This document shows positions 5,029 through 62,937 of a stretch of 64,000 nt of DNA, one piece after another (the stretch's first letter is position 1; every line of letters starts with the position of its first letter). The position numbers were made by a program, and so were the translations under genes. Under the pieces are notes generated by a model, which had not been told where the DNA came from, did no database searches, and saw nothing but the letters and a program-made list of their open reading frames with translations. The stretch is from Bacilli bacterium. Its GTDB lineage: Bacteria > Bacillota_I > Bacilli_A > JAJDGJ01. The DNA lies in assembly GCA_031272545.1 (NCBI GenBank), contig JAISTP010000022.1, positions 1,533 to 65,532 on the forward strand. Reading direction: 5' to 3'.

Positions 5029-6852
5029 TCATTTCTTAATTTCATGATTATATTTAAAATCAGAACTTTCAATATAATAATCACTAAAATAATTAGATTT
5101 AATAATTTTATCACTTATTGAAAATGACTTCTTAATATTAGCTGCCATATCTTTATCAACATTACCTAGAATAATACCATTATTTTCAATAACATAACCA
5201 ATATTATCTTCTAATAAATTATTACCCATAGCTGTATCTTGATATTCTTTTTTATCAACACCTAACAAAGATAATACGGTAGGCATAATATCTATTTCGC
5301 CACCTACTTTTGAAATTTCTTCTCCAATCATACCTTTGCTATAAATTATTAAAGGAATCTTACCATCATTTTCATAATCACTAACATTACCAACTTCTTT
5401 TTCAATAGTAGCATCTGTTGTATATTTATGTAATCCTTCATGATCACCATAAATAACAATTATTGTATTATCTAATTGATTATCTTTATCTAAAGTATCA
5501 ATAAAATTGCCAATAGCACTATCAGTATAATGTACTGCTTGATAATAACGTCCAACTACAGTATTATTAATAGAATCATCTAATTTTAAAGTTTGCATCT
5601 CTTCTGGTATTTTAAATGGCGTATGTGATGTTTCAGTAACTGTAAAAAGATAATATTTATTCTTTTGTTCATTACATAACTGAGCTACTTGTTGTAAGTT
5701 TGCATCATCTTTAAGCCCCATAAAAAACATATCTTCTTTATTAGCTTTCATACCATCAATATCTATTACTTCATCAAAACCTAAATTTGGTAAATAAACA
5801 TTTTTATTCCAAAAATAACTTTTACCACTATGAATAGCGATACTATGATAATCATCTTCTCTTAATAAAACAGGAAGACTATTATAATGATTATAAGGAT
5901 ATAAATATGATTGAGCCCCATTTCTTAAAGGTAATATCGAAGTATTAACCATAAAATCTGCATCACTACTATTACCTTCATTTACTTGTTCATGAACATT
6001 ATTAAAGTAATAACTATTCTTTAATAACTTATTTAAGTTAGGAGTAATTTCTTGGCCATCAACACTTTTATTAATTACAAAATTTTCTAAACTCTCTACT
6101 TGTAAAAAAATAACATTTTTATCTTTAAAAACACCAAAATCACTAACTTTACCAACATTAGTATTTTTAATCTTAAAATAATCCTCAATACTATTTTTTA
6201 CACTATTTTTTGATACTCTTTTATTCAAATCATTAATAAACGAATCAATATCATAATAATGATAACCAATAATACTTAATTTAGCACCTGTTTCAATTTT
6301 AGTTGGTTTTGGTGAAAAAATTTCATCATATCGCGAGATAATAAAACCACAAAATATTAAATAAACCATAAAAATTAATTTAACTTTAATACTTTTATTT
6401 TCTTCACCAGCAACTAAATTTAATAATTTCTTGTGAAAGACTATTAATAATATTGGATCAATAAAGATAATGATATCTAAAGGTTTAATTAAAGCTAAAG
6501 CAGAAGAACCAATTATTCCAAATAATTTATATTGAAAAATATTATAAATACTTATATAAGATTCAAAGCTTCTAAAATAAATTAAATCGGCATACATAAG
6601 AACACTTAAAATAATATCTAAAATCATTAATATTTTATAAGTTGTCTTATTATTAAATATTAAGCTTATCGCAAAATAAGAAAAAGCACAAAAAAGATAT
6701 GAAAGAAGATAACGATTTATTTCAAAATTAGTATCTTTAATCAAAACATCCTCTTGTGAATGAACAACCATCGTAAATATTATTAACTTTATAAAAACAA
6801 ACAAAGATAATAATAAGTAAATAATATTTATTTTAGAAAATAATTTTTTCAA
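5029..6852 (-). CDS. LTA synthase family protein (membrane-anchored sulfatase-type phosphoglycerol transferase)
   Basis: About 5 N-terminal TM helices followed by an extracellular alkaline-phosphatase/sulfatase-like domain (ETSHTPF, VIYGDHEG). Confidence 0.7.
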   Translation of the reverse strand: MKKLFSKINIIYLLLSLFVFIKLIIFTMVVHSQEDVLIKDTNFEINRYLLSYLFCAFSYFAISLIFNNKTTYKILMILDIILSVLMYADLIYFRSFESYISIYNIFQYKLFGIIGSSALALIKPLDIIIFIDPILLIVFHKKLLNLVAGEENKSIKVKLIFMVYLIFCGFIISRYDEIFSPKPTKIETGAKLSIIGYHYYDIDSFINDLNKRVSKNSVKNSIEDYFKIKNTNVGKVSDFGVFKDKNVIFLQVESLENFVINKSVDGQEITPNLNKLLKNSYYFNNVHEQVNEGNSSDADFMVNTSILPLRNGAQSYLYPYNHYNSLPVLLREDDYHSIAIHSGKSYFWNKNVYLPNLGFDEVIDIDGMKANKEDMFFMGLKDDANLQQVAQLCNEQKNKYYLFTVTETSHTPFKIPEEMQTLKLDDSINNTVVGRYYQAVHYTDSAIGNFIDTLDKDNQLDNTIIVIYGDHEGLHKYTTDATIEKEVGNVSDYENDGKIPLIIYSKGMIGEEISKVGGEIDIMPTVLSLLGVDKKEYQDTAMGNNLLEDNIGYVIENNGIILGNVDKDMAANIKKSFSISDKIIKSNYFSDYYIESSDFKYNHEIKK

Positions 6853-38300: not shown

Positions 38301-39461
38301 TTAAACTTCTTTATCTTTATCATTTAAATCAATAATTTCAATACTATCATCATCTTTTGCTAAAGCCTTATCAAGCATTTCATTATTATTAATATCATCA
38401 CTTACTAATTTAGTCGTATCTATTTCATCAATAACTTGATCTTCTTTATTATCTACCTTTATTTCATCACTTATATTTTCATTATTATCTATAATTATCT
38501 CATTAGTACTTTTTTCTTCTTTATTATCTAAATCAATATTATCTTCACTTACTACTTTTTCTAAATTATTTGTATCCATATAATCTTTTTTCTCTTCAAA
38601 AATGGTTTTAACTAATAATTTAAAATATAACCCATTAATCATTAAAGTAGTATCAAATGCTTTAATAAGTTCATCATTACTATTGTAAAATTCAATAATA
38701 TCATTTTGATGATATTGAGCATGATTACCTTCATGTTTTTTAATTCTAATATAATCTTTTTTAAGTGTTGAAGCCATATTTTTCTTATTATAATAAATAC
38801 TATCGATTGTTACTACGACACGTTCATTTTCAAAAGAACCATAAGTATTACCATATTGAGTTATTGTTTTTTCAAAATTCTTTAATTGATGATCAACATC
38901 TTTTTCATCTTTTAAAGATAAATAAGCAAATCTAACTCCTTGAGTATCATCAATCTCTTTAATCGAACGATTAAGCTTTAAATTGGCATAGACACTGTTG
39001 ATATCATTAATTAATATTAAACTAGAATTACCTTTTTTAGTATAGAATTTACTTGAAATACTTTCCCATACTTCATTTTTATGAAAACGAAAAGCTAAAC
39101 TATCACTAAAACCAAAAGGTATATCTTTATTTAAACGATAATTAAACATTTCATCAATATTCTTAATATTAAATTCGTGCTCTACTTCTCTACCAAAACA
39201 AAATTTAATTATAGTACCATCAAATCTAATATTCTTTCTTTTATTAGCTTTAGCAGCCAATATTAAAAAGATAAATCCTAGAACTAATAAAATCCATGCA
39301 CCAATAATTATATATAAGCTATAACTACGATAATAAGAAACGACATTTAAGTGTAACAATAACACATATAAAAATACTAGGATAGCAATTAATAATAATA
39401 ATTTCCCAATAAATCTTAAAAATTTTGCGATAAATCTTTGTTTTTCATAATATATTTCCAT
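38301..39461 (-). CDS. Hypothetical membrane protein with an acidic low-complexity C-terminal tail
   Basis: Two N-terminal TM helices, a central globular part, and a D/E/N-rich tail. No known motif. Confidence 0.5.
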   Translation of the reverse strand: MEIYYEKQRFIAKFLRFIGKLLLLIAILVFLYVLLLHLNVVSYYRSYSLYIIIGAWILLVLGFIFLILAAKANKRKNIRFDGTIIKFCFGREVEHEFNIKNIDEMFNYRLNKDIPFGFSDSLAFRFHKNEVWESISSKFYTKKGNSSLILINDINSVYANLKLNRSIKEIDDTQGVRFAYLSLKDEKDVDHQLKNFEKTITQYGNTYGSFENERVVVTIDSIYYNKKNMASTLKKDYIRIKKHEGNHAQYHQNDIIEFYNSNDELIKAFDTTLMINGLYFKLLVKTIFEEKKDYMDTNNLEKVVSEDNIDLDNKEEKSTNEIIIDNNENISDEIKVDNKEDQVIDEIDTTKLVSDDINNNEMLDKALAKDDDSIEIIDLNDKDKEV

Positions 39462-39588: not shown

Positions 39589-41313
39589 TTATTTATTCAA
39601 TTCTTCTAATAAAGCAATAGCAGCTAAATGAGGACCATCATGTTCTAATCCTTTAATTCCTAATCTTGTTTTTAATTGACCTACTTTAATATTATTATCT
39701 TTCATTAATTTAAAATATTCATCAATTAATTTCTTAGTTTTATTTTTTCTTTGAACAGGACCAAATGGATTCGCAAAGAAACTTTTAACTAAACCTTTTT
39801 CAGTTGTTGTGCCTTTAGCCATTCTTGCTCCATCAATAAATACTTGTTTGGCTTCATCAATATCTTTAAATAATTCTATTCCTTTACCATCCGCATCATA
39901 ATTATTCGCATAAACAAATAAATCAATTTCATAACCAGCAATTATTTCTTCATAGCTTGCGACTGGTATCACAATACGAGCATTAACTTTATCTGGATTC
40001 ATAAAGATTGAACGATCAATAGTACGATAAGCATATCCAGCATCTAAATCATCTAACCTTACAAAAGCACCTACTTCTGTACCATAAGCTTTGATAACAT
40101 TATCTTCATTAAATAAGATACCCATATCATCAAAGATAATTTTAATATCTCTAATACCATTATCTTCTAAAGTTCTTAAAGCTTCTAATGTTTCTGATTT
40201 ACCAGCCCCACTATCACCCATAATAATAACATTTTTTCTTTGTCCATTATTCATCGTAATTAAAGCCATTGCGCCATGAATTGGTAGACCACCTTCATCA
40301 ATTCCCTTAACATTATGTAATGTTAAAATCATTTTCTTCATATATCCAAAATAATCAAATTCTTCACTATATGAAGCATAACCTATTAAAATGTCTTCAT
40401 CTTTATCATGATAGAAACAAGTTTTTTCTTCTTCATCTTTAATGCCAAAGACATACATTAAATCAGGTTTAGTATTTTTAACATATTCTACTTCAGCTAA
40501 TTCAAATAAATTTGCTAGAGTAACACCCATTGACATAAAGTCTTTATGAAAATATATTAAACAAAAGTATTTCCCTACTTTAGCTGGATAACATAAGAAA
40601 TCATTTTTATCAATACTAATATCTTCCAAAGGATTGACCATAACTTCTTTAAAAATACCATCCCTTGTTGTGCGACGAGGATAAGTAATAAAAGGTGGAT
40701 GAAGAATAATATTTTCAATAATAGGAACTTGTCTTAATTTATCATAAACTCCTTTTTCATGAGCTAAATGATAATCATTTAAAATAATTCCTGCATTAAC
40801 ACCTGCTATTAATTGACGATATACTCTATTTTTCTTACCTTGTAATTTCTCACTTAAAGTACGATATGTTTCTAATATAAGATTTTCAAAATCAGTATGT
40901 GATTCAATAAAATGAACATTTTGAATACCTTTTTGTGATTTAGAATTATATACTAAAGCATATCTTTCTAAAGAACGCCAATAATCATACATTGTTTCCA
41001 CAAATTCTAAAAGTGATTTTTGTTTCTCCATATATTTAAAATAATCAGTATGAACAACTTTAATTAAATTAATATCCATTACCACTAGAAGTTTAAACAT
41101 AACTATTAAATCATATACTAATTGTTTATCATCACTCTCTATTTCATTCAATTCAAAGTATAATGGTTTTTGTTTTCTTTTTAAATATTTTAAATGAACA
41201 GTCACAAATTCCTTAAATGCACTAGTATTTAATAATTCAATTGTCGATGTGCAGTAATATTTTGTAAAATTTAAAACTGCATTAGTTTTTGATAATGTAA
41301 ATGATTTTGCCAT
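39589..41313 (-). CDS. Uncharacterised protein with a C-terminal HPr-kinase/PEPCK-like P-loop domain
   Basis: HGAMALI...NVIIMGDSGAGKSETLEAL....IFDDMGIL parallels the HprK/P pattern HG.L......GVLI.G.SG.GKSE.ALEL......L.ADD. The ~330-aa N-terminal part is unrecognised. Confidence 0.45.
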   Translation of the reverse strand: MAKSFTLSKTNAVLNFTKYYCTSTIELLNTSAFKEFVTVHLKYLKRKQKPLYFELNEIESDDKQLVYDLIVMFKLLVVMDINLIKVVHTDYFKYMEKQKSLLEFVETMYDYWRSLERYALVYNSKSQKGIQNVHFIESHTDFENLILETYRTLSEKLQGKKNRVYRQLIAGVNAGIILNDYHLAHEKGVYDKLRQVPIIENIILHPPFITYPRRTTRDGIFKEVMVNPLEDISIDKNDFLCYPAKVGKYFCLIYFHKDFMSMGVTLANLFELAEVEYVKNTKPDLMYVFGIKDEEEKTCFYHDKDEDILIGYASYSEEFDYFGYMKKMILTLHNVKGIDEGGLPIHGAMALITMNNGQRKNVIIMGDSGAGKSETLEALRTLEDNGIRDIKIIFDDMGILFNEDNVIKAYGTEVGAFVRLDDLDAGYAYRTIDRSIFMNPDKVNARIVIPVASYEEIIAGYEIDLFVYANNYDADGKGIELFKDIDEAKQVFIDGARMAKGTTTEKGLVKSFFANPFGPVQRKNKTKKLIDEYFKLMKDNNIKVGQLKTRLGIKGLEHDGPHLAAIALLEELNK

Positions 41314-44557: not shown

Positions 44558-45613
44558 ATGAAAAAAATAATATGTTTTTTATTATTCTTTGTTTTAGCAA
44601 TTAATTATCAAGTTAATGCGGATACAAAAGATGATGCAGCTAATGAATTCTATAATTTAATTAATAAAATAGAAAAAGGTAATGGTATAAATGCTAGTAT
44701 AGCATTAGATGCTAATTTAATTGATAGTGATGATAATTCAAGTATTCCTTTAAATTTTAATTCTAATATTATTATAGATAATAATTTTAATGCTCATATT
44801 ACAAATACTTTTTATGACAAAACTATTTTAGAATTATTACCACCAGATGTATCTTATGATGAATTTTATTTTGACAATGATTACATTTATTTTAAATATA
44901 ATAATACTTGGTATAAAATAGATCCTTATCTTATTCAATATTTAATAAATGATATAGATAATGAAGAATATAATGATTCAGAAGATAATATTGAAGATAT
45001 AGATAATGAAGAGTTTAATGATTTAGAAGATAATATTGAAGATGTTGATAATGAAGACTTTAATGATTTAGAAGATAATATTGAAGATGTCATAATAGAT
45101 AATGATTTTGAACAATATGTTACCAATATTAATACTGATGATATAATTTCATTTTTTAATAATTTAGAAAATGCTACTTATACCAAAGATAATAATGATT
45201 ATATTGTAACTGGTCGTATTAATAGTGATTTGCTTAGTAAATATGCAAAAGGATTTGGTATTGATGATCAAGAAACTATTAATGAAATAAGTAGTAATCA
45301 AGTAGATCTTAAAATATCAATACTTAATAGTAAATCACAAATTATCTTTAGTTTTACTAATTTAAGTAAAGAAAGTTCTTTATATCAAAATGGGTTTCAT
45401 TTAAATAGTTTAGTTATTAAATTAACAGAAAATAATGAAAATGTAATTATTCCTGAAGATGTTTTAAATGCTATAGATATATCTAGTTTAATGCGTCTTA
45501 CAGATAATGAAGGAAGAATAATACCTAGTACTGGTTCTAATTTATTAATATTAAATACTTTTAGTTTTATATTATTATTAACAACTAGTATTATCTATAA
45601 AAGAAATTATTAA
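44558..45613 (+). CDS. Secreted acidic surface protein with a sortase-type C-terminal sorting signal (IPSTG)
   Basis: Signal peptide. The C-terminus has IPSTG, then a hydrophobic stretch, then a KRNY tail. Acidic 15-aa repeats lie in the middle. Confidence 0.55.
   Translation: MKKIICFLLFFVLAINYQVNADTKDDAANEFYNLINKIEKGNGINASIALDANLIDSDDNSSIPLNFNSNIIIDNNFNAHITNTFYDKTILELLPPDVSYDEFYFDNDYIYFKYNNTWYKIDPYLIQYLINDIDNEEYNDSEDNIEDIDNEEFNDLEDNIEDVDNEDFNDLEDNIEDVIIDNDFEQYVTNINTDDIISFFNNLENATYTKDNNDYIVTGRINSDLLSKYAKGFGIDDQETINEISSNQVDLKISILNSKSQIIFSFTNLSKESSLYQNGFHLNSLVIKLTENNENVIIPEDVLNAIDISSLMRLTDNEGRIIPSTGSNLLILNTFSFILLLTTSIIYKRNY
44957..45091 (+). repeat. 3 x 45-bp in-frame tandem repeat (DNEE[YF]ND[SL]EDNIED[IV])
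   Basis: Units at 44957-45001, 45002-45046 and 45047-45091 differ at only a few positions. Confidence 0.9.
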
Positions 45614-46380: not shown

Positions 46381-47169
46381 ATGTCAAAGAAATGTATTTT
46401 ATCAATTATATTATATGTGCTAGGAGGCCTATTAATTATTTATGGGATTTGGGCTACTGTAGAATTAATTATTGTTATTAAACAATATGTTGCTCAAGGA
46501 ATGCAATTAAATACTCATGCTTTAATTTTCCAAGCATTTGATTATGTTCTTAAAGAAGTAGTTTTATACTATGGTTTTGGTATCTTATTTATAGTATTAG
46601 GATTCTTTAATTGTAAATTAAATGGTTTAACTAAAAACAAAGCTAATATTACTAAAAAAGATAGTTTAAAAGAAGTAGTAGCTGCTAATGAAAATAGTGT
46701 AGATGATACAAAAAAAGATTACTATGATAAAGACACTGAAGCTATTATCAAAGATAATAGTGAAAGTAAAAAAGAAAATGTTTCAGAAGATGTTATTGAA
46801 GAACAAATTGAAGAGCCAAAGAATAGTGAAGATGTTAAAATTACTAATGAATACAATGATAGTTTAGAAGCTAAAGACGACAATAAAGGGTTAGATTCTT
46901 TAGATATTGTCGATGAAACATTAAATAAAGATAAGAAGTTATCTAAAAAAGAATTAGAAACTATTGTTAGTGATGCTATTAATTTAACTCCATCAGCTTT
47001 AAGTAAAAGAGAAGAATCTGGATGGACTAAAGTGGATTTTACTACTTTAGAAGAAGCTAAAGAATTAGCTAAAGATAATAAAGTTAAATTTGTTGTTTCT
47101 AAAAAAGATAAAACTTTAATTGATAGTTTAGAAGATATTAAGTATTTAATTACTAAACCATTAAAATAA
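46381..47169 (+). CDS. Hypothetical two-TM membrane protein with an acidic cytoplasmic region
   Basis: Two N-terminal TM helices followed by a K/E/D-rich region. No known motif. Confidence 0.45.
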   Translation: MSKKCILSIILYVLGGLLIIYGIWATVELIIVIKQYVAQGMQLNTHALIFQAFDYVLKEVVLYYGFGILFIVLGFFNCKLNGLTKNKANITKKDSLKEVVAANENSVDDTKKDYYDKDTEAIIKDNSESKKENVSEDVIEEQIEEPKNSEDVKITNEYNDSLEAKDDNKGLDSLDIVDETLNKDKKLSKKELETIVSDAINLTPSALSKREESGWTKVDFTTLEEAKELAKDNKVKFVVSKKDKTLIDSLEDIKYLITKPLK

Positions 47170-47976: not shown

Positions 47977-49182
47977 TTAATCCATATTTTCTACTAAAAT
48001 TGCAATACCCATTCCTCCACCTATACATAGTGAAGCAACTCCGTATCTCTTATTTAATCTTTTCATATTATGTAATAATGTTACAAGAATTCTACTTCCA
48101 CTAGCTCCAACTGGATGACCTAAGGCAATTGCTCCTCCAGTAAGATTAGTTTTCGCAAATATATCTTCTTGACTAACATTAAATCTTTCAGATAATAATT
48201 TAACTGAGCCTAATGATTGTGCCGCAAATGCTTCATTTAATTCAAAGATATCAACATCTTCAAATTTAACATCTTTAACCACATTAGTAAATAAATTATC
48301 AATAGCATAGAAAGGACCTAATCCCATTACTTTTGGATCTAATCCAGCTTGGGCCCAACCTAAAATCTTAGCCATTGGTTTAGCATTATATTTTTCTACA
48401 ATCTTATCATTAGCCACTACTACATAAGCTGCACCATCATTAATTCCTGATGCATTACCAGCAGTAACAGTACCATCTTTAATAAAAGCTGGTTTTAAAT
48501 TAGCTAATTTTTCCATTGATGTTTCTCTAGGATGTTCATCAGTATCAAAAATAATGTCACCTTTTCTATTTTTTACAGTAACTGGAACTATTTCATCTTT
48601 AAAATATCCATTTTTAATTGCATCTAATGCTTTTTCTTGTGATTTTAAAGAAAATTCATCTTGCATTTCTCTAGTAATTCCATATCTTTCCGCTACATTT
48701 TCTGCAGTTACACCCATATGAATATCATTGAAAGCATCAGTTAAAGCATCATAGACTAAAGTATCAGTAAGTTTTACATCAAAAAGTCTAAATCCACTTC
48801 TTGCTTGATTAGTCGCATATGGAGCTAATGACATATTTTCAGTTCCCCCAGCAATAATTAAGTCCGCAACTTCTGCTTTAATCATATTGTACGCATTAGT
48901 TACTGATTTAATTCCTGAACCACAAACCATATTTAATGAAGTACCAGGAATCTTTTCACTTAATCCTGCTTTAATAACAACTTGACGTCCTATCCCTTGT
49001 CCAGCTGCTCCAGGTAAAACATTTCCTGAAATTACTTCAAAAATGTCTTCTTCTTTAATATTATTTTTTTCTACTAAATCTTTAACAACAGCAGCTCCTA
49101 ATTCAGCAGCAGGTACTGTTGATAATCCCTTGCTTAAAGAACCAATTGCTGTTCTTTTCGCATCTAAAATATAAATACCCAT
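47977..49182 (-). CDS. Acetyl-CoA C-acetyltransferase (thiolase II)
   Basis: Active-site Cys in NMVCGSG, NEAFA, GHPVGASG, CIGGGMG. Confidence 0.9.
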   Translation of the reverse strand: MGIYILDAKRTAIGSLSKGLSTVPAAELGAAVVKDLVEKNNIKEEDIFEVISGNVLPGAAGQGIGRQVVIKAGLSEKIPGTSLNMVCGSGIKSVTNAYNMIKAEVADLIIAGGTENMSLAPYATNQARSGFRLFDVKLTDTLVYDALTDAFNDIHMGVTAENVAERYGITREMQDEFSLKSQEKALDAIKNGYFKDEIVPVTVKNRKGDIIFDTDEHPRETSMEKLANLKPAFIKDGTVTAGNASGINDGAAYVVVANDKIVEKYNAKPMAKILGWAQAGLDPKVMGLGPFYAIDNLFTNVVKDVKFEDVDIFELNEAFAAQSLGSVKLLSERFNVSQEDIFAKTNLTGGAIALGHPVGASGSRILVTLLHNMKRLNKRYGVASLCIGGGMGIAILVENMD

Positions 49183-49368
49183 GTATTTTCCTCCTATTTT
49201 ATTTTATTTTCTTATATATGATAACACTTTTATATTAGTAAAAATAGTAAAAACACAATATTTTATGTTAAAAAATCATAGTGTGTTTAATATCTAATTT
49301 TTTTATAAAAATCTATTATTATTCAATGCAAAATATCCTTCTTATTTACTTTTATTTAATATTAAAAG

Positions 49369-51126
49369 TTATACTATTCTTTTAAACATTTTTTCAATAT
49401 CATTTAATGTTAAAGTTAAGAATATTGGTCTACCATGAGGACAATGATCATTATTGCTACAATTTAATAAACGATTAACTAAATTAGTCATTTCTAAATT
49501 GCTTAACTTAGTATTCGCTTTTAAACTCATTTTACAACTTGCTAGAATTAAATCATCTTTAACAATATCAAAAGGAATTATCTTTTTATATTCTAATAAC
49601 TTACTTACAATATTCTCAATAACTTCCTGAGCTTTATCTTCTTCTATCCAAGAAGGAATACTTCTAATTAATAAATCATTATTAGCTTGTACTTCAAAAT
49701 TTAAACCTAGATCAATTAAATAATCTTTGAATTCCATTATTTTAATACTTTCACTAAAACTTAAATTAATAATAATAGGAACTATTAAATCATAATAAGT
49801 TAATTCTTTATTAAAATTATTTTTTATATTTTCATAATTAATTCTTTCCATAGCAGCATGTTGGTCAATCATTTGTAGTCCTTTTTCATTACTTATTAAA
49901 ATATAAGTACAAGCAAATTGTCCTATTACATCAAATAGATAGTTTCTATTAGTATCTTCTTTAATATTATTGCTTTCATTATTAATATCATTATCTTTTA
50001 AAGTGTTGGAGTAATCTTCAGTAACAACCTCACTAATTATCTTATTATTAGTATTATTATTTTGATAATTTTTACTTTCTATATCATTACTATTAAAATT
50101 AAATTGCATATTATTAATTTTATTATTATCAATAGCTTTATTAAATAAAGTAGGTCTAATACTTAATTTATCTTTTAAAGTATTAGTTATTAAATTACAT
50201 AATTCATTTTTTTTATCTAATCTTACTTCTTTTTTAGCTGGATGAACATTAACATCAACTAATTGATTATCACAAGTAATATTAAGGATTACAATAGGAA
50301 ATCTCCTTTCCATTAATAAAGTATCATAACCATCAATTATAGCTTGAACTATATTATTATCTTGAATTAATCTTTTATTGATAAAAAGATAAATTGCTCT
50401 TTTATTTGAACGAGTAATATCTTTATTACTATAATAACCATCTATCATAAAATCATCATTATTAGTTTTAAAATAATTCATATTTTCTGCTATATCTAAA
50501 CCATAAATAGCATTAAGTATTTCTATAATATTATTATTACCAGAAGTAGTTAAGATATTCTTACCATCATTAGTTAAAGAAAAAGCAATATTAGGATACA
50601 TTAATGAAAAACTATATATTAATTCGACAATACTACTATAAATACGATTATTTGAAGAAAGAAATTTAAAACGAGCTGGTACATTATAAAATAAGTTATT
50701 TACACTTATTTTAGTACCTTTATTTTGATAGCCCTCACTTAATAGATCATCATTAACATTATAAAAATAACCTTTATTATCATTATTAGTCGCAATCTTT
50801 ACCATAGCTACATTAGTAATGCTTGCTAGTGCTTCTCCTCTAAATCCTAAAGTATTAATATGATTTAAATCATATTGATTATTAATTTTAGATGTTGCAT
50901 GAACTTTGGTACATAATAATAAATCTTCTTTACTCATTCCTATTCCATTATCAACTACTTGAATTAATTGTAATCCATTATTTATAATTGTAATATCTAT
51001 TTTACTAGCATGAGCATCAATACTATTTTCGACTAATTCTTTTATTACTGAAGTTGGTGATTCAATTACTTCACCAGCAGCTATTTTAGAAACAATACTT
51101 TCTTCTAATATTTTAATTTTATTCAT
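49369..51126 (-). CDS. mutL: DNA mismatch repair protein MutL
   Basis: GHKL ATPase N-terminus (SKIAAGEVIESPTSVIKELVENSIDA), an N-rich linker, and a C-terminal dimerisation domain (CPHGRP). Confidence 0.95.
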   Translation of the reverse strand: MNKIKILEESIVSKIAAGEVIESPTSVIKELVENSIDAHASKIDITIINNGLQLIQVVDNGIGMSKEDLLLCTKVHATSKINNQYDLNHINTLGFRGEALASITNVAMVKIATNNDNKGYFYNVNDDLLSEGYQNKGTKISVNNLFYNVPARFKFLSSNNRIYSSIVELIYSFSLMYPNIAFSLTNDGKNILTTSGNNNIIEILNAIYGLDIAENMNYFKTNNDDFMIDGYYSNKDITRSNKRAIYLFINKRLIQDNNIVQAIIDGYDTLLMERRFPIVILNITCDNQLVDVNVHPAKKEVRLDKKNELCNLITNTLKDKLSIRPTLFNKAIDNNKINNMQFNFNSNDIESKNYQNNNTNNKIISEVVTEDYSNTLKDNDINNESNNIKEDTNRNYLFDVIGQFACTYILISNEKGLQMIDQHAAMERINYENIKNNFNKELTYYDLIVPIIINLSFSESIKIMEFKDYLIDLGLNFEVQANNDLLIRSIPSWIEEDKAQEVIENIVSKLLEYKKIIPFDIVKDDLILASCKMSLKANTKLSNLEMTNLVNRLLNCSNNDHCPHGRPIFLTLTLNDIEKMFKRIV

Positions 51127-51218
51127 TAGTTCACCTCTTTATCTATTAGCTATTATATTGATAAAATAAAATTTTGTTTTTTATAGAAATATTAAACTTT
51201 TTATGTTAGAATACAAAT

Positions 51219-51263
51219 GTAGATGGGCGTAAGCCGATGGGTCTCTAGCGGAGACCCTTTTTT
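51219..51263 (+). ncRNA. Candidate ~45-nt convergent small RNA / plus-strand terminator module at the abi 3' end
   Basis: Extended -10 TGTTAGAAT (51204-51212), then GGC-GTAA-GCC and GGGTCTC-TAGCG-GAGACCC hairpins, the latter followed by T6. One of the few GC-rich patches I noticed outside the tRNA and riboswitch regions. Confidence 0.25.
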
Positions 51264-52092
51264 ATTTAGTTAAATAATTTAATATTTTAATATAATCTTT
51301 TTTATCATCATTATCTCTTAAAGTCCTATTTTTTTTATTACTATAGTTTATTGTAATTTCTATACTATTGTTGTGGTAAACACAATTTCTAATATCGATT
51401 AATTTAAAAACTATTTTCTCAAAAGAAGCAATATTTTTACAAAATAGTACTTGATCTAATTTTAATAATTCTTTAAAGATTATTTTTTTTGTTTCTTTTC
51501 CTATACAAATGTAAACACTTAACAACTGACCAAAACTTAAATTGTCTAAAAAAACAAATATATTAGCATATTTACAATAATATTTTTTTAAATTCTTAAT
51601 ATGTTTTTTTATATTTTCAATACGTTCTTTAGAAAAAACATCATTATTTTTTAATCTATCAGCATTATTATTTAATAATACTACAAATTTATTAAAATTA
51701 TTTTCACTATCTATTTCATATTTAATACTAGTATAATAGGATAATATTGTAGAAAAGGTACTTTCAAATTTAGATATTTTTTTAAATATTAATGGATAAT
51801 ATTCTCTTTCTTTTTTATATAAATTAAGATAGCTATTAAAATCAGTTATACTATAATATTGATGTTTGTTATTACTATTTAGTATTGGATTATTATTAAT
51901 ATCCTTATTATAAAACTTATATTTAAATGGAGTAATAATATTTATATAATTTAGTTCATATAACTTCTTTTTAGCATCACATTCTGAAATAGAACTAAAT
52001 ATGATATTTTTAGTAGTTCTTAAATATTCAATTTGTTCATCTAAAGTTAATGGCTTTTTCCAATTAATTATATTATCTTTATCTTTATTCAT
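51262..52092 (-). CDS. Abi_2 (AbiD/AbiF-like) abortive-infection protein, HEPN-type
   Basis: N-terminus K.LTLDEQIEYL......I.....A...L...NY typical of Abi_2. R-x4-H motif in LIDIRNCVYHNNSIE. Confidence 0.65.
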   Translation of the reverse strand: MNKDKDNIINWKKPLTLDEQIEYLRTTKNIIFSSISECDAKKKLYELNYINIITPFKYKFYNKDINNNPILNSNNKHQYYSITDFNSYLNLYKKEREYYPLIFKKISKFESTFSTILSYYTSIKYEIDSENNFNKFVVLLNNNADRLKNNDVFSKERIENIKKHIKNLKKYYCKYANIFVFLDNLSFGQLLSVYICIGKETKKIIFKELLKLDQVLFCKNIASFEKIVFKLIDIRNCVYHNNSIEITINYSNKKNRTLRDNDDKKDYIKILNYLTK

Positions 52093-52128
52093 TAGTTCAC
52101 CTCTTTATCTATAAATACTTAGAGAAAA

Positions 52129-54645
52129 TTACTTTAATTTATCTTTTAGTTCTTTTAATAATAATAAAGCATCTATTCCGGTTAATTCATCTAATTTAAT
52201 ATCATTAATTAATTTAACAACTTCTTCATTACTATCTTTTATTACTTCAACATATTCAACTTTATTAATATTATTATTATCTATTTCAAAATTATTTAAT
52301 AAACTTTCAGCTCTTTTTAATATTGGATTAGGTATATTAGCTAATGAAGCAACATGTAATCCATATGAACGATCAATACTACCAGGCTTAATCTTATAAG
52401 TAAGTATTATTTCTTTGTCATTTTCAATTACTGAAGCATGATAGTTAACAATACTATCATTAGTATTTGCTAATTCTACTAATTCATGATAATGCGTAGA
52501 AAATAATAGTTTAGCTTTAATTTGTGAGGTAATATATTCAATAATAGCACCAGCTAATGACATTCCATCATAAGTAGCAGTACCTCGACCTATTTCATCG
52601 AAAATGATTAAACTATTCTCACTAGCATTTAAGATAGCATTACTTGCTTCTAACATTTCAACCATGAAAGTTGATTGTCCTTGAATAAGATTATCACTAG
52701 CACCAATACGAGTAAAGATATTATCAAAGATCATTAGATTAGCTTCTTGGGCTGGTACATAACATCCTATTTGAGCCATGATAATAATTAAAGCTAATTG
52801 ACGTTCATAAGTAGATTTACCACCCATATTAGGACCGGTAATAATCATCGTATTAATATCACTACCCATCATAAAATCATTATTAATAAACTCTTGTTCT
52901 TTATTAATTTGTTTAATAATAGGATGAAATGATGATTTAATATCTATCTTATGTTCATCATTAAATATTGGACAAGTATAATCACTTTGATTAGATATTT
53001 TACTTAGTGCTTGCATAACATCAATATAACTTAATTTACTAGCAATATCTTGCATATCTTTTATAAACTTATTTAATTCTTTTACAATATCATTAAATAA
53101 AATAATTTCTAATTTATTAACATTATCTTGAGCACTTAATATTTGAGATTCTTTTTCTTTAAGTTCAACATTAATATAACGTTCTCCATTAGTAAGGGTT
53201 TGTTTTCTAATATAGTTAAATTCATCTTTTATTAAATGTTTATTAGCATTACTTACTTCAATATAATAACCAAATGTTTTGTGATATTTAACTTTTAAAT
53301 TATTAATTCCCGTTATTTCTCTTTGTTTTTGTTCGAAATTTAATAACCAAGATGTACTATCATTTAATATATTACGATATTCATCAAGTTGTTCATTATA
53401 ACCGTCTTTAATTATTTTTTCATTATTACCATCTAGTATTTCTATTGGAATACTTTGTTCTATTAAAGATATAACTTCATGAACATCTTTAATATCATTT
53501 AAATAATTATTAATAATATCATTATTAAATTCTTTTAATAAGTTAAATATTTCATAACTAGCTTTAAGTGAATTATTTAACCATAATAATTCTTTAACAT
53601 TAATATTATTACTAGCTAATCTAACAACTAATCTTTCAATATCATAAACTTCTTGTAAGTATTTTCTTATTTTTTCTGTTTTAATAACATCACTTAAAAG
53701 TACTTTAATAAAATTTTGTCTATTAATAATTAATTCTTTTTTAATTAAAGGATTTTCAATAATTTCTTTTAATTTTCTTGAACCCATAGCAGTCTTAGTC
53801 TTATCTAAGTACCAAAATAAGGTACCATATTTATCATTATTACGAATTGAAGTAATTAATTCTAAATTATATTTGGCATTATAATCTAAACTCATTGAAT
53901 CTTTATTGTCATATTCAATTTCTAAATAATAATCAATATCATTAAATTGAATGGTTTTAATATAATTAAATAAATTACTAAAAGCATCATAATATTCTTT
54001 ATTAATTTCATTTAAATAAGGGTTACTATGATCTTGATTAAAGTTAAAACTAATTAATAAACGATATGTTTTTAATAAGTTATTAAAAATACTAGTATCA
54101 AATTTATCTCTTAAGACAATTTCTTTTATTTGATATTCTAATATAATATTAATAAGTTTATTTACATCTTTGATTATTTTCTTAGCCTTTAACTTACCTG
54201 TACTTAAATCCGCTAGAGCCAAATAATAATAATTAGGTTTAGTATCATCAATAAACATTAAGAAATTATATGATATTGATTCATTATCAGTATAAGATCC
54301 TGGAGTTAGTACTTTGATAACTCCACGATCAACCATTTTACCAATACCAGCTTCACTAAGTTGTTCACATATTGCTACTTTGTATCCTTCATCTAATAAT
54401 CTTTTTAAATAACTTTCATAAGCATGGTAAGGAATGCCGCACATTGGTACTCTTTGATCTAATCCAGCATTACGTCCAGTTAAGGCAATAGATAAGATAT
54501 TACTAGCTATTAATGCATCATCAAAGAACATTTCATAAAAATCACCTAGACGATAAAAAACAATACAATCCATGTATTTTCTTTTAATATCAATATATTG
54601 TTTCATCATTGGAGTTACTAAATCATATACTTTATCTATTTCCAT
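52129..54645 (-). CDS. mutS: DNA mismatch repair protein MutS
   Basis: TPMMKQY N-terminus, Walker A GPNMGGKST, DEIGRGT, STHYHEL. The ATG at 54645 follows AGGTG; the track start at 54654 is a GTG. Confidence 0.95.
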   Translation of the reverse strand: MEIDKVYDLVTPMMKQYIDIKRKYMDCIVFYRLGDFYEMFFDDALIASNILSIALTGRNAGLDQRVPMCGIPYHAYESYLKRLLDEGYKVAICEQLSEAGIGKMVDRGVIKVLTPGSYTDNESISYNFLMFIDDTKPNYYYLALADLSTGKLKAKKIIKDVNKLINIILEYQIKEIVLRDKFDTSIFNNLLKTYRLLISFNFNQDHSNPYLNEINKEYYDAFSNLFNYIKTIQFNDIDYYLEIEYDNKDSMSLDYNAKYNLELITSIRNNDKYGTLFWYLDKTKTAMGSRKLKEIIENPLIKKELIINRQNFIKVLLSDVIKTEKIRKYLQEVYDIERLVVRLASNNINVKELLWLNNSLKASYEIFNLLKEFNNDIINNYLNDIKDVHEVISLIEQSIPIEILDGNNEKIIKDGYNEQLDEYRNILNDSTSWLLNFEQKQREITGINNLKVKYHKTFGYYIEVSNANKHLIKDEFNYIRKQTLTNGERYINVELKEKESQILSAQDNVNKLEIILFNDIVKELNKFIKDMQDIASKLSYIDVMQALSKISNQSDYTCPIFNDEHKIDIKSSFHPIIKQINKEQEFINNDFMMGSDINTMIITGPNMGGKSTYERQLALIIIMAQIGCYVPAQEANLMIFDNIFTRIGASDNLIQGQSTFMVEMLEASNAILNASENSLIIFDEIGRGTATYDGMSLAGAIIEYITSQIKAKLLFSTHYHELVELANTNDSIVNYHASVIENDKEIILTYKIKPGSIDRSYGLHVASLANIPNPILKRAESLLNNFEIDNNNINKVEYVEVIKDSNEEVVKLINDIKLDELTGIDALLLLKELKDKLK

Positions 54646-54817
54646 AACATACACCTAATTTCCTAATAATTATAACATAAATTAAATTGTTTAATTTTTT
54701 AATATAATCTAAAATAAATTAACTAATATTTAACTATTTATTATCTTATATCTATTCTATTTTTTTATTATTGGCGTATAATAAAAATGCGAATAAATAG
54801 ATAAGGAGAATATTTTT

Positions 54818-55444
54818 ATGGCAATATTTCACAAGAAAGCAGATCCTTTCTTTATACAATTGATTGAATTCAATACACTAATTGTTAAGGCAGCTCAAGA
54901 ATATTATGATTTAGTTAATAATTATGATGATATTGAGAGAAGAGTTAAAGCTATTAAACAAATAGAACATGAATGTGATGATAAAACACATGAAATTCTT
55001 ACAAGTATTCATGCGACTTTCGTAACTCCAATTGATCGAGAAGATTTATTTTCAATTACAAAAGGTTTAGATGATATTGTAGATTGTATAGAAAAAGTAG
55101 CAGCTCGTTTTATTATCTTTAATGTTAAAAAGCCAACTAAAGAATGTATCGAAGCTGCAGAATTAATCTTAGAAGCTACACAAGAATTAAAGAAATTATT
55201 TGAATATTTACCTAATTCTAAACAAAACCTAGAAATGGTTAGAAAACAAATAATTGATGTTAATCGTATTGAAAATGATGGTGATACATTACATCGTGCT
55301 AGTCTTACTAGATTATTTAAAGATGAAAAAGATCCAATTGAAATAATTAAATGGAAACACATATATGAACAATTAGAAGATTGTATTGATTCATGTGAAT
55401 CAATTGCAAATATTGTTCAAGGGATAGTTGTTAAATATGTTTAG
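54818..55444 (+). CDS. DUF47 (PhoU-like/YkaA) phosphate-transport-associated protein
   Basis: About 205-aa helical protein immediately upstream of, and overlapping, the PiT gene. E.D..H...R.L pattern. Confidence 0.75.
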   Translation: MAIFHKKADPFFIQLIEFNTLIVKAAQEYYDLVNNYDDIERRVKAIKQIEHECDDKTHEILTSIHATFVTPIDREDLFSITKGLDDIVDCIEKVAARFIIFNVKKPTKECIEAAELILEATQELKKLFEYLPNSKQNLEMVRKQIIDVNRIENDGDTLHRASLTRLFKDEKDPIEIIKWKHIYEQLEDCIDSCESIANIVQGIVVKYV

Positions 55445-59526: not shown

Positions 59527-60156
59527 TTATTTAACTAAATTAATAATAGTTTTCGCAATATCTTTAATATCTTCATCATGAGTCGCAATAATAATTGTTT
59601 TATCATTTTCATTTAATTTTTTTAATAATGAAATAATTAATTGACAATTATTCTTATCTAAATTACCAGTTGGTTCATCACATATTATGAATGGACTCTC
59701 TCGCATCAAAGCTCTTACTAAAGCAACCCTTATTTGCATTCCTGCACTTAAAGTATTAACTAAAACATTTAAATCTATTTCTAGATTAACATCTTTAAGA
59801 TACTTATTCATTAATTCTTTTTTCTCAACTACAGATAATTTTTTATCTAATAAAGCTAAATTCAAATTATAATAAATGCTTTGATCTAATAATAAGAAAC
59901 CATCTTGTGATAAGTAAGATATATATTTATTTTTAATAGTTCTCTTACTAATAATTTTATTAGTATCATCTAGATATTTTATTGTGCCAGCATTAATATT
60001 TTCAATATAACTAATCATATTTAATAATGTTGTCTTGCCTACACCACTATTACCATATATTGCAATAAAATCATTTTCTTTAATTTCTAAATCAAAATTA
60101 TTAAAAATTATATTACTACCATATTTTTTACAAACTTTATCAAGAATTATTTTCAT
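59527..60156 (-). CDS. ABC transporter ATP-binding protein (bacteriocin-locus associated)
   Basis: Walker A GNSGVGKTT, signature LSAGMQ, Walker B FIICDEPT. Confidence 0.85.
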   Translation of the reverse strand: MKIILDKVCKKYGSNIIFNNFDLEIKENDFIAIYGNSGVGKTTLLNMISYIENINAGTIKYLDDTNKIISKRTIKNKYISYLSQDGFLLLDQSIYYNLNLALLDKKLSVVEKKELMNKYLKDVNLEIDLNVLVNTLSAGMQIRVALVRALMRESPFIICDEPTGNLDKNNCQLIISLLKKLNENDKTIIIATHDEDIKDIAKTIINLVK

Positions 60157-61964
60157 TATTTACTCCTCATTTCTATTATTAAGTATTTATTAATTAAACG
60201 ATAAAACATCACATAAAAAATAAGAATATTTATTATAATTAAACTAATCAAAATAACTAATTTAAATAAACTAAAATTAATTATAATAAATAAAGCTATC
60301 ATTAAATAAATAATACTAGTGATAATAATTAATTCTTTAAATACTTTAAATATTGAATATCCAAAATGATATTTAATACATATTTGTCTTTGATAATGAT
60401 AAATAATACTAAATAATAATGTAAAATTAAATATTACTAAGCATAACAAATTAATAAAACTAAATAAGATATTCTCCATAGTAATATAATTTAAATAATA
60501 TTGAGATGATTCAACCATATTATTTATACTAATAACATTAACATTACCTTTATATCCTACTTGATGATAATATTCTTCAATAACTTCTTTAGCATTCTTA
60601 AAGCCAGTTGTTCTAAAATAATAAGTATCTAAATAATCTTCTTTATTTATTTTAATGTCGATATCTCCACTATCTGTTCTAGCAAGACCATTATCTAATA
60701 TTAAAATGTCTTTATTACTTGCGATAGATATAGTTTGATAGTTTTTTAAATATTTATTATTAGATGTTAAATAATAATTGTGATCATCTTTTATAAATAC
60801 TCTTTTATTACTTTTATTTAAGATGAAAAAATTATTTAAATAATTCTTTGTTGTCTCTACTACTAAATAACCATTACTATTATCAGTATTAAGAGAAAAA
60901 GCATTGTTATTACTAATTAATTCTTTATTAACCTTAATTAATTGTTGTTCATTACTATTTAAAGGGACTTCAAATGTATAATAATCATCCTTTAAATTAG
61001 ATGAAGTATATAAATTACTCATTTTATTTAAATTATAAACATTACTAACATGATTAATAACAATAACATTTATGATAATAAATAATAAAGAAAGAAAGAT
61101 TATTATTACTTTTCTTATATTCCTTTTTTTAAATAAATAAACTATTTTTAAGATAGCCATTTCAAATAATATTATTATTAATAATAAGAAAACTAATAAG
61201 GCAATAATAATTAAAAATGAATAATTTATTGCACGATAATATAATAATAATATTAATAAACTAATTATTAAAATAATACTAATTTGTTTTATTCGATTAT
61301 TAAGAACTAATTTTCTTAATACCAACAAATTATTATATCCAAAACTATTTAAGATATTTAATTCTTTAGATTTTTTATTAATATGATAAAAATCATAAAG
61401 AATAAAAGATAATGTTATTAACATACAACTTGAAATAAAATACATAAAATAAGTATTATCATAATAATTATCTGTATATTGTTCTTTTTCTATTATATTA
61501 AACTTATTAACTAGACCATATTTAACAAATTGATTTTTAATTTGTTCATAGTTAATATTATCTTTATATAAACTAAACATTTGTAAATCATTAAAAGATA
61601 TATCTTTCTTTTCATATCTAAAATTAAAGATATATTGATTAATAATATCATTTTGATAATTTTTAAAATAATTAATACAACTTAAATATTTACTTTGAGG
61701 ATCTTTATAATAAAGATTATTTTTATCTCCTATTTTAAAATTAGTTACTGTACTTTGAAATATTAAATTATTATTAATAATCATCTCTTTTAATTTATTA
61801 ATATCATTTCTAGAATAATTAAACATTTCTGAAGCAACTACACTAACATAATCATTATTACTATCACAATCTTGTGATATCAGACTATTATAATTACCTA
61901 TAGTAATAATTATTAAAAAAGATAAAAATAATGATGATAAAATTAATAGTATTTTAGTTTTCAT
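60156..61964 (-). CDS. Bacteriocin-associated integral membrane protein (FtsX-like permease/immunity type)
   Basis: Layout is TM1, extracellular domain, TM cluster, a second extracellular domain, TM cluster. Size and position match the membrane gene of lactococcin-972-type operons. The ATG at 61964 follows GGAG; the track start at 61979 is a TTG. Confidence 0.55.
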   Translation of the reverse strand: MKTKILLILSSLFLSFLIIITIGNYNSLISQDCDSNNDYVSVVASEMFNYSRNDINKLKEMIINNNLIFQSTVTNFKIGDKNNLYYKDPQSKYLSCINYFKNYQNDIINQYIFNFRYEKKDISFNDLQMFSLYKDNINYEQIKNQFVKYGLVNKFNIIEKEQYTDNYYDNTYFMYFISSCMLITLSFILYDFYHINKKSKELNILNSFGYNNLLVLRKLVLNNRIKQISIILIISLLILLLYYRAINYSFLIIIALLVFLLLIIILFEMAILKIVYLFKKRNIRKVIIIFLSLLFIIINVIVINHVSNVYNLNKMSNLYTSSNLKDDYYTFEVPLNSNEQQLIKVNKELISNNNAFSLNTDNSNGYLVVETTKNYLNNFFILNKSNKRVFIKDDHNYYLTSNNKYLKNYQTISIASNKDILILDNGLARTDSGDIDIKINKEDYLDTYYFRTTGFKNAKEVIEEYYHQVGYKGNVNVISINNMVESSQYYLNYITMENILFSFINLLCLVIFNFTLLFSIIYHYQRQICIKYHFGYSIFKVFKELIIITSIIYLMIALFIIINFSLFKLVILISLIIINILIFYVMFYRLINKYLIIEMRSK

Positions 61965-61988
61965 ATATTGGAGCTCCAATCACCATAG

Positions 61989-62342
61989 TTATTTTATAGT
62001 TGTAGCACAATGAACATGTGATGCAAAATTACCCCATCCAGCCGCAAAAGAAAATGCACCATTTTTTCTTTTAGGGCCAACATAAGTAAATTTTGAATTT
62101 TTCATTTTTACCCATGAATAATAATACTTGTTTTGTTTAGCTGAATATGAAGTTGTATAATATCTTGCACCAGCATCAAAAGTACGATCAATTCCAGAGT
62201 AATAATCAAAACTACTTTTTTGAATATCATTGGCAATATAATTATGATAAACACACATTTTAGCATTAATATTCAAACCACTTATCATTGTTATTAAAAA
62301 TACTAGTATTAAAGATAATACTAATTTATAAGCTGATTTCAT
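61989..62342 (-). CDS. Lactococcin 972 family bacteriocin precursor (putative)
   Basis: Sec signal peptide (cleavage near NINA/K). The ~90-aa Tyr/Ser-rich mature part ends in GWGNFASHVHCATT, reminiscent of Lcn972 SNYHHGSKTHSATV. Same three-gene context as lcn972. Confidence 0.5.
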   Translation of the reverse strand: MKSAYKLVLSLILVFLITMISGLNINAKMCVYHNYIANDIQKSSFDYYSGIDRTFDAGARYYTTSYSAKQNKYYYSWVKMKNSKFTYVGPKRKNGAFSFAAGWGNFASHVHCATTIK

Positions 62343-62526: not shown

Positions 62527-62937
62527 TTATTCACTATAAACTTTTCTAAATATAATTCCAACAATAATATTTAAAATTCCTGTTAAAACAAATAAAATAT
62601 AAGGTCCAAAATTAGATAAACTAGTTTGTATTTGATAAGCAAAATTATAATATGGTATTAAAAGAATAATAGCTAATAATAACCATATAACGTAAATAAC
62701 AACAATTTCTTTTCTTATAACAAAAAGATTACAAATTCTACTATCTAATACAATAGTTAAAACAATTGGTAAAATGACTTTTAATGATTTTATTATAACT
62801 AAAGTAGAAGTAGTAGTAGAACCACTATAAATTAAATTATTATTTAGATAACCAAGATAATATATTGATAATATTCCTACAACTAATAATATTATAATTC
62901 TTATGATTGTAATTAATTTGAAACTTTTAATGTCCAT
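62527..62937 (-). CDS. Hypothetical 4-TM membrane protein
   Basis: 136 aa with four hydrophobic helices. No known motif. Confidence 0.4.
   Translation of the reverse strand: MDIKSFKLITIIRIIILLVVGILSIYYLGYLNNNLIYSGSTTTSTLVIIKSLKVILPIVLTIVLDSRICNLFVIRKEIVVIYVIWLLLAIILLIPYYNFAYQIQTSLSNFGPYILFVLTGILNIIVGIIFRKVYSE

Follow-up and report, generated by a model that had tools for sequence, protein, structure and literature searches.

A candidate AbiF-like toxin and convergent small-RNA module inserted at the mutL start of a Bacilli bacterium

The mutS-mutL junction and its 29-bp repeat

In a 64,000-nucleotide stretch of DNA from a Bacilli bacterium (contig JAISTP010000022.1 of assembly GCA_031272545.1; hereafter the window), the mismatch-repair genes mutS and mutL are separated by a gene for a protein of the Abi_2 family, which we call abi, and by a putative small-RNA (sRNA) gene convergent with it (Table 1). 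According to the list of open reading frames (ORFs), mutS, abi and mutL all lie on the minus strand with abi in the middle, and the ATG of abi is 36 nt downstream of the mutS stop codon. A preliminary description of the locus, made from the sequence alone, had read abi as a single-gene cassette inserted between two normally adjacent genes and bounded by a perfect 29-bp direct repeat that duplicates the translation start of mutL.

The repeat is exact, as had been described. The plus-strand 29-mer TTTATTCATTAGTTCACCTCTTTATCTAT occurs twice, 966 bp apart, with identity at 29 of 29 positions; this identity stops sharply at its edges, where the flanks differ, an imperfect extension covering 33 of 35 positions. 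These are the only two copies in the 64 kb, on both strands and with up to three mismatches allowed, and none of 100 dinucleotide-preserving shuffles yielded any copy. The two-copy count and the shuffles rule out a chance repeat as well as a generic ribosome-binding site, which is the objection that the preliminary description had raised against itself.

On the coding strand, the repeat reads ATAGATAAAGAGGTGAACTA-ATG-AAT-AAA, and both Abi and MutL therefore start with MNK after an identical Shine-Dalgarno sequence. MNK is also the start of 15 of the 33 MutL relatives that we compared, among which M[NSD]KIK is conserved, and the closest relative starts with MSKIKIL behind a homologous ribosome-binding site. 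The repeat copy at mutL is homologous to the mutL initiation region of a related contig, L009, with the pattern AAAGAG[G/T]TGA...ATGA[A/G]TAAAATTAAAATATTA. When positions 51147-52112, which comprise the inserted block and one repeat copy and have 18.4% G+C versus 24.6% in the window, are removed, the resulting mutS-mutL junction is collinear with the empty junction of L009, in an alignment that takes in the Shine-Dalgarno sequence and ATGA[A/G]TAAAATTAAA. To judge from these alignments, the duplicated 29 bp is native (host) mutL sequence, which agrees with the earlier identification of the repeat as the start of mutL.

The closest MutL among 5.8 billion proteins (P0003, 66% identity) is encoded on contigs L009 and L010, in both of which mutS and mutL are separated by 50 bp with nothing in between, and the gene order epimerase-PHO4-PhoU_div-mutS-mutL is common to these contigs and the window. 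Next to five further MutL proteins of about 50% identity (P0007, P0010, P0021, P0024 and P0029), mutS and mutL either overlap by 8 nt or have a gap of 8 nt. The two genes are thus adjacent and free of any insert in six of the six related lineages that were examined, in line with the adjacency assumed in the preliminary description. Because the junctions of the relatives are empty and the reconstructed junction aligns collinearly, the order mutS-abi-mutL is derived, and the insertion reading proposed earlier holds. Among species representatives of GTDB, the nearest MutL is just 39-40% identical, and an exact-sequence look-up of the window MutL and MutS in other assemblies returned no record, hence no empty site from the same species.

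The Abi protein and a putative convergent small RNA

The assignment of the 831-nt gene to the Abi_2/HEPN proteins, with an intact R-x4-H motif, was confirmed. The protein matches the Pfam model Abi_2 (PF07751) with 50.6 bits, above the cut-off of 25.6 (E 3.7e-13; profile positions 2-181 of 184), as well as the PADLOC model AbiD (E 1.4e-12). Across 44 aligned relatives, neither of the two catalytic residues of the motif, R235 and H240, varies, and since the window Abi retains every invariant and near-invariant residue of this alignment, it is not decaying. With HMMER, 1.84 billion representatives were searched exhaustively; the 139 relatives recovered are all at most 43% identical, and the window protein is the most divergent of its relative set. 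A word-indexed search for close relatives returned the window protein alone, and tblastn found nothing in the INPHARED phages or the PLSDB plasmids. In a Foldseek comparison of an AlphaFold2 model (mean predicted local distance difference test score, pLDDT, 95.5) with the Protein Data Bank (PDB), the top match was 8VZ6_A, annotated as ‘PbAbiF dimer bound to ncRNA’ (E 1.7e-3, probability 1.00, template-modelling scores 0.49/0.46, 257 columns). This is the only meaningful match, the next one having an E-value of 1.5, and a sequence-profile search of the PDB likewise returned only 8vz6_A, at a marginal E-value of 0.37. As judged from the model and these profiles, the protein is a distant member of the AbiD/AbiF group with a moderate similarity of fold to 8VZ6.

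The beginning of this protein is unusual. The sole Met codon of the abi ORF is the ATG inside the upstream repeat, and 11 residues precede the conserved [FY]KKP of the window protein, as against 2-8 in the relatives. Residues 1-10 are also the only low-confidence part of the structural model (pLDDT 62). All three of these properties fit an abi ORF whose start is now the ATG borrowed from mutL and whose first codons were probably once its own 5′ leader. With regard to the contexts of the relatives, five are on viral contigs of IMG/VR, and several have a tRNA gene no more than a few hundred bases from the Abi-sRNA module (L024 3741-3822, L027 4967-5052 and L078 4300-4372), which is consistent with carriage on integrated elements or prophages.

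Of the 85 loci with Abi relatives that we fetched, 80 metagenomic and 5 viral, nearly all carry an sRNA unit immediately downstream of abi, on the opposite strand. In order, this unit consists of a TTGACA-17-TAnAAT promoter, 4-5 nt, a box with the pattern AUG[UC]A[AG]AU[AUG]G, a hairpin of 3-5 bp, a purine-rich linker and, in most cases, a terminator with a U-tract that extends into the complement of the abi stop codon. A covariance model, R3, detected the sRNA in 70 of the 85 loci, which is a lower bound; in several of the loci without a match, abi is at the end of the contig. All 71 matches lie opposite the abi strand, directly after its stop codon. In a MAFFT alignment of 14 of these RNAs, from which the window was excluded and which was not fitted to a structure, 96.8% of cells are paired, with compensatory changes at 8 of 11 pairs; none of 500 shuffles equalled this, and slid controls reached at most 52% paired. 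In a model-fitted alignment of 19 distinct sequences, hairpin 1 is paired in 100% of cells and all four of its pairs have compensatory changes. The G-U pairs also reveal that the RNA lies opposite abi, as on the abi strand they would turn into A-C mismatches. No Rfam 15 family corresponds to this sRNA, and neither the abiF motif RF03085 (E <= 1) nor any other family was found in 10 of the relatives’ loci.

Examples of the sRNA are found at L023 2523-2575, L024 4829-4889 and L057 4813-4870, in each case on the minus strand with abi oriented +. Two loci have two successive copies downstream of abi, with different hairpin sequences (L052, 926-988 and 1234-1294; L022, ~2976-3020 and ~3090-3153). 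Such loci form a small array of RNA partners, which is of interest because AbiF-type pairs of a HEPN protein and a non-coding RNA are discussed as ancestors of Cas13.

The corresponding place in the window is the 135-bp spacer between abi and mutL, which holds an island of 54% G+C in a genome of about 25% G+C. A candidate sRNA of about 47 nt can be drawn here, convergent with abi, whose U-tract overlaps the abi stop codon (51262-51264) and whose promoter-like site sits where the relatives have TTGACA-17-TAnAAT. The stretch of promoter and box, TTAGAATACA[A/G]ATGTA[A/G]AT, is nearly identical to that of L027. The plus-strand RNA of the island is predicted to fold into two hairpins (z = -2.5), and the region’s only site resembling an intrinsic terminator is in the island, on the plus strand only, facing abi. 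The box pattern derived from the relatives, ATGYARATDG, has a single match in the 128 kb of strand, namely the one in the spacer; with 3.8 matches at random places in shuffles, a match in the spacer and on the right strand would arise by chance with a probability of about 0.004. A profile hidden Markov model (HMM) of promoter plus RNA, built without the window, has its best window-wide match at this site (E 0.25). The R3 model aligns to 51217-51268 with 10.3 bits, corresponding to an E-value of 0.013 within the spacer defined a priori. From this evidence, which is mainly one of context, we consider it probable that the island belongs to the sRNA family of the relatives, and co-divergence of the RNA is plausible given that the window Abi is the most divergent of its set. 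The preliminary picture of a single-gene cassette is thus in need of correction, since the insert also appears to hold a convergent sRNA gene with promoter and terminator, in a layout that is repeated beside the Abi relatives.

Rfam searches at E <= 10 found nothing relevant in the region, and RF03085 was not detected in 49000-55000. One match on the island, to Atu_C8, was rejected: at 20.8 bits, versus a gathering score of 50 (E 1.6), we read it as a chance match driven by the terminator. ARAGORN detected no remnant of a tRNA or tmRNA at the island; its only predictions are tRNA-Glu and tRNA-Asn near 29.9 kb. The preliminary description had also pointed out a TATAAT hexamer facing mutL. The hexamer is present (as ATTATA on the plus strand), but as a promoter of mutL it is weak at best: the window has 239 copies of TATAAT, on average one per 535 nt of strand, the -35 of this copy is poor, it is not among the promoter-like sites that score at least 9/12, and such sites are no commoner in the window than in shuffles.

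Table 1. Features of the mutS-abi-mutL locus (positions in the window; strand relative to the window)
Feature	Position	Strand	Description
mutS	52129-54654	-	841 aa; from the ORF list; Pfam MutS_I-V, E down to 1.2e-78
Direct repeat, copy 1	52084-52112	-	Supplies the Shine-Dalgarno sequence and sole ATG of abi
abi	51262-52092	-	276 aa, 831 nt including stop; Abi_2 (AbiD/AbiF-group) HEPN protein, candidate RNase toxin
R-x4-H HEPN catalytic motif	51373-51390	-	R235-N-C-V-Y-H240; motif DIRNCVYHNN read from the sequence
Inserted block	51147-52083	-	937 bp between the repeat copies; abi codons 4-276, putative sRNA gene with promoter, 37-bp spacer
Candidate sRNA	51217-51263	+	~47 nt; convergent with abi
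Promoter-like site of the sRNA	51184-51212	+	TAGAAA, 17-nt spacer, TG-n-TAGAAT (extended -10); promoter scan 9/12 with TG
sRNA 5′ box	51217-51226	+	ATGTAGATGG; pattern from relatives
sRNA hairpin 1	51226-51235	+	GGC-GUAA-GCC; predicted fold
sRNA terminator	51239-51263	+	Stem-loop GGGTCTCTAGCGGAGACCC (51239-51257), then T6 (U-tract, 51258-51263)
TATAAT hexamer facing mutL	51152-51157	-	5 nt inside the insert; -35 reads AAAACA; possible weak promoter
Direct repeat, copy 2	51118-51146	-	Working translation-initiation region and first three codons of mutL
mutL	49369-51126	-	585 aa, intact; Pfam HATPase_c_3, DNA_mis_repair, MutL_C

Proposed function, origin and alternatives

We propose, with a probability of roughly 60%, that an AbiF-like module of toxin and RNA antitoxin was inserted at the start of mutL and became wired into the mismatch-repair operon. 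According to this proposal, the gene of an Abi_2 HEPN RNase and that of a structured RNA of about 47 nt would have entered together, as one block of 937 bp, at the mutL translation start, and the event would have recombined through, or duplicated, 29 bp of native mutL comprising the Shine-Dalgarno sequence, the ATG and codons 2-3. The upstream copy would then provide the only Shine-Dalgarno sequence and the only ATG of abi, as an MNK fusion, and the downstream copy would keep mutL intact. Between mutS and mutL, the coding strand has no predicted intrinsic terminator, and because 36 nt leave no room for a promoter of its own, abi is most likely co-transcribed with both genes; it would be translated from the mutS operon transcript by means of the copied mutL initiation region. 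The sRNA would be transcribed towards abi from its own extended -10 promoter. By analogy with PbAbiF/AbiFr and with AbiF/RCd22 of C. difficile, it might bind the HEPN protein and hold it inactive, in the manner of a type III-like toxin-antitoxin or abortive-infection system. Infection or a shut-off of transcription could deplete the RNA and so free the RNase. Both the antagonism between RNA and protein and the anti-phage function are things that we infer from these analogous systems.

In those systems, proteins of the AbiD/F group are toxic HEPN RNases that are neutralised by a cognate non-coding RNA (PMC12373285, PMC13064643, PMC12737573). The present protein resembles the AbiF/AbiD/AbiD1 group in its Abi_2 domain, its R-x4-H motif, its length (the group having about 270-300 aa) and its fold, which matches 8VZ6_A, the PbAbiF-AbiFr complex from Prevotellaceae. 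As in that group, a small structured RNA gene appears to accompany the protein gene, and relatives occur in prophage or viral contigs and near tRNA genes. However, the characterised RNAs are encoded upstream of the protein gene and on the same strand, as is the case for RCd22 of C. difficile (PMC12373285) and for PbAbiF/AbiFr (summarised in PMC12737573 and PMC13064643); they bear the abiF motif RF03085 and act in part as leaders or attenuators (PMC12373285, PMC13064643). The candidate RNA here, like that of at least 70 related loci, instead lies downstream, on the opposite strand and behind its own promoter, it ends at or overlaps the abi stop codon, and it matches nothing in Rfam; the window moreover offers only 36 nt upstream of abi, and no RF03085. 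Judging from sequence, then, this is a defence gene of a known kind whose arrangement with its RNA partner differs from the described AbiF systems. The type III systems proper (ToxIN, AbiQ, TenpIN) are alike in that an RNase toxin is paired with an RNA antitoxin and in the role in abortive infection that is presumed here. They have unrelated toxin folds, ToxN not being a HEPN protein, and their antitoxins are tandem repeats upstream of the toxin gene, on the same transcript, which the toxin processes; in contrast, the window has no tandem direct repeats in 50900-52400 and no non-coding space upstream.

A number of observations weigh against the proposed module and its wiring. The insertion event is a singleton, known from one metagenome-assembled genome (MAG) and one sample: mutS and mutL are absent within 4 kb of the gene in 85 of 85 loci with Abi relatives, and flanking direct repeats of at least 11 bp around the module were found in none of 35 relatives, save for imperfect ones in L045. 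With regard to composition, abi, at 16.8% G+C, is second-lowest of 46 ORFs, about 2.2 standard deviations under the mean, yet its G+C at third codon positions (9.1%) agrees with that of the host (10.7 +/- 2.2). A perfect repeat can be squared with such host-like codon positions only by assuming a donor just as AT-rich as the host or a repeat that arose after the acquisition. The analogy to the characterised systems is itself an extrapolation, because their RNAs are upstream, on the same strand and with RF03085, all of which is absent here. Finally, the window RNA lacks the purine-rich linker that is conserved elsewhere. Neither of the covariance models R1 and R2 (best-conserved sRNA subgroup) has a match to it, the R3 match ranks only 11th window-wide (E 5) and aligns the box and the U-tract but not the hairpins, and an RNA-only profile HMM does not rank the site, so the island could be an unrelated terminator.

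Such low scores are what would be expected if the G+C-rich island were merely an orphan or bidirectional terminator hairpin, with abi a single-gene insert and the resemblance to the sRNA of the relatives a coincidence. We consider this quite unlikely, given that the 10-nt box has its sole match in the whole window precisely here, that the extended -10 is spaced 4 nt from the box exactly as in L018, L027 and L033, and that the terminator works only on the plus strand, where no protein gene needs terminating. A serious alternative, or addition, to protein binding is that the sRNA is a cis-antisense regulator of the type I kind, which pairs with the 3′ end of abi and the abi-mutL spacer of the operon mRNA and triggers its processing or decay. 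In the type I systems of Bacillus (txpA/RatA, bsrG/SR4), an antitoxin RNA convergent with the toxin gene overlaps its 3′ end and acts by base pairing, and the convergent, overlapping layout here is much the same. The abi-mutL stretch of the operon mRNA would be complementary to the entire sRNA, and in many relatives, among them L018, L027 and L057, the RNA has no terminator before the abi stop codon and must run antisense into abi. However, the Bacillus toxins are small membrane peptides, not a HEPN enzyme of 276 aa, and a purely antisense RNA would need neither a conserved 5′ box nor a covarying hairpin across loci that otherwise differ. The characterised relatives of the protein, furthermore, are neutralised by direct binding of RNA (PMC12373285). 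As the main role of the sRNA, antisense pairing is accordingly somewhat doubtful in our view, if less so than a mere terminator.

As for the manner of insertion, the preliminary description had compared the locus to the SpyCI islands, which in streptococci use the 5′ end of mutL (PMC4129442, PMC3430984). These islands are 13-20 kb long, encode an integrase and replication functions, and are excised and reintegrated according to growth phase (PMC4129442, PMC3430984); some islands of this type carry abi genes (PMC4129442). Their excision and reintegration switch mismatch repair on and off. The likeness lies in foreign DNA between mutS and mutL at the mutL start, with host sequence repeated at both junctions and a potential to alter the expression of mutL. 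By contrast, the host here is not a streptococcus, and the insert has 937 bp, a single protein gene and no replication gene, with no recombinase among the scanned ORFs within about 14 kb. It is not a SpyCI island, and the analogy is limited to the site. The absence of mobility genes that had been noted earlier was borne out by a Pfam scan. Between 36.9 and 63.6 kb, 22 flanking ORFs reach at least 110 aa, and the scan took in 20 of them; an overlapping antisense ORF was left out, and one scanned ORF is shorter than 110 aa. None of the 20 matches an integrase, transposase or recombinase, and 7 of them have no Pfam match at all. The ends of the insert have no convincing terminal inverted repeats. 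With neither these nor a transposase, and with a repeat of 29 bp versus the usual 2-15 bp, a transposable element that duplicated its target site was rejected.

A perfect 29-bp repeat of host sequence fits three routes, namely a site-specific recombination core, a single crossover with a small circle, and a repair-associated duplication. Perfect direct repeats of host DNA, tens of bp long, are typical att cores of tyrosine recombinases, and the block could on these grounds be the last remnant of a larger, mutL-targeting site-specific element, on a path from SpyCI-like to an integrase-less state like that of a cis-mobilizable element (CIME). The two 29-mers would then be the cores of attL and attR, and deletions would have left an addictive toxin/RNA pair with abi fused in frame to the mutL start borne by attL. 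The lack of inverted repeats and transposase agrees with such a history, and toxin-antitoxin pairs might be expected to outlast the other genes of a decaying element. Yet apart from abi, the sRNA and 37 bp, the block holds nothing, neither an integrase or replication gene nor a pseudogene fragment or other debris of an island, and none of the six related lineages has an island between mutS and mutL. Moreover, the distance from the sRNA promoter to the far boundary of the module is similar to that seen in unrelated loci (L035 versus L036), which suggests that the module itself is the moving unit. A decayed island is thus improbable, and a module-sized event is weakly favoured over it, because the block is the module alone, with only 37 bp beyond the sRNA promoter. 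Exact short repeats on either side of an insert, seen in a single sample, are also the typical pattern of a mis-join, in which a de Bruijn-graph loop through the shared 29-mer would have placed a small circle or a fragment from elsewhere between mutS and mutL. However, the MAG contig agrees base for base with a contig from an independent Logan assembly (L008, run SRR14710912, 3,989 bp), which extends across both junctions and has 0 mismatches to window positions 49584-53572. The k of 31 used by Logan exceeds the length of the repeat, and each junction must accordingly be supported by k-mers that cover the repeat together with both of its flanks. Given the agreement of two assemblies and this k, a graph loop is unlikely, and as the abi ORF is also in frame with the ATG of the repeat and has no other start, we regard an assembly artefact as scarcely credible.

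If a toxin/RNA module was indeed inserted as proposed, a toxin gene without a start codon of its own, which uses the duplicated initiation region of a housekeeping gene in the mutS-mutL operon, would be an unusually explicit case of wiring into core-gene expression. The locus adds a non-streptococcal case of the mutL 5′ end as an insertion site, with no visible mobility gene. The subfamily, with its convergent downstream RNA outside Rfam and its clear covariation, widens the known ways of encoding such ribonucleoproteins and offers a testable pair of protein and RNA. A putative coupling of MutL expression to the insert is possible, and any change in mutL expression brought about by the sRNA or the insert would link phage defence to mutation rate. 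The most far-reaching version would combine two things: that this Abi_2 subfamily represents an undescribed architecture of the AbiF lineage, in which a convergent sRNA of 45-70 nt with its own promoter, sometimes in two copies, shares the terminator region with the toxin gene; and that the copied mutL initiation region ties the pair firmly to the mismatch-repair operon, such that toxin synthesis follows mutS-mutL transcription and the sRNA, being antisense to the abi-mutL spacer, modulates the supply of MutL and links the state of defence to the mutation rate. That both would hold jointly strikes us as a long shot. Even without any functional effect, the locus remains a natural insertion with clear limits, whose empty site can be reconstructed intact.

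Neighbouring genes and related junctions

Among the relatives, the imperfect direct repeat in L045 is about 50 bp long (~3870-3915 and ~5210-5260) and brackets abi, the sRNA and an ORF of 107 aa. It consists of the 3′ end of the upstream gene (...KKDNK*) and intergenic sequence. Related junction sequence is present in L033, L042, L044, L049 and L054, and in L049 it precedes different cargo. The junction shared by L045 and L049 suggests a variable hotspot at which modules may be exchanged via conserved flanks.

Elsewhere in the window, an ORF of 117 aa (55009-55362, minus strand) is wholly antisense inside the PhoU_div gene (54818-55444) and most likely spurious. At E <= 0.001, Pfam matches are lacking for six ORFs of 117-574 aa (38301-39461, 39589-41313, 44558-45613, 46381-47169, 61989-62342 and 62527-62937), which fits a poorly sampled lineage, as does the low identity of the closest MutL in GTDB. 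A further ORF, of 607 aa (60156-61979, minus strand), likewise has no Pfam match and has the lowest G+C of the 46 long ORFs (16.4%). It lies directly upstream of, and abuts, a gene for an ABC-type ATPase (59527-60156), and the two may be another pair of the accessory or defence type.

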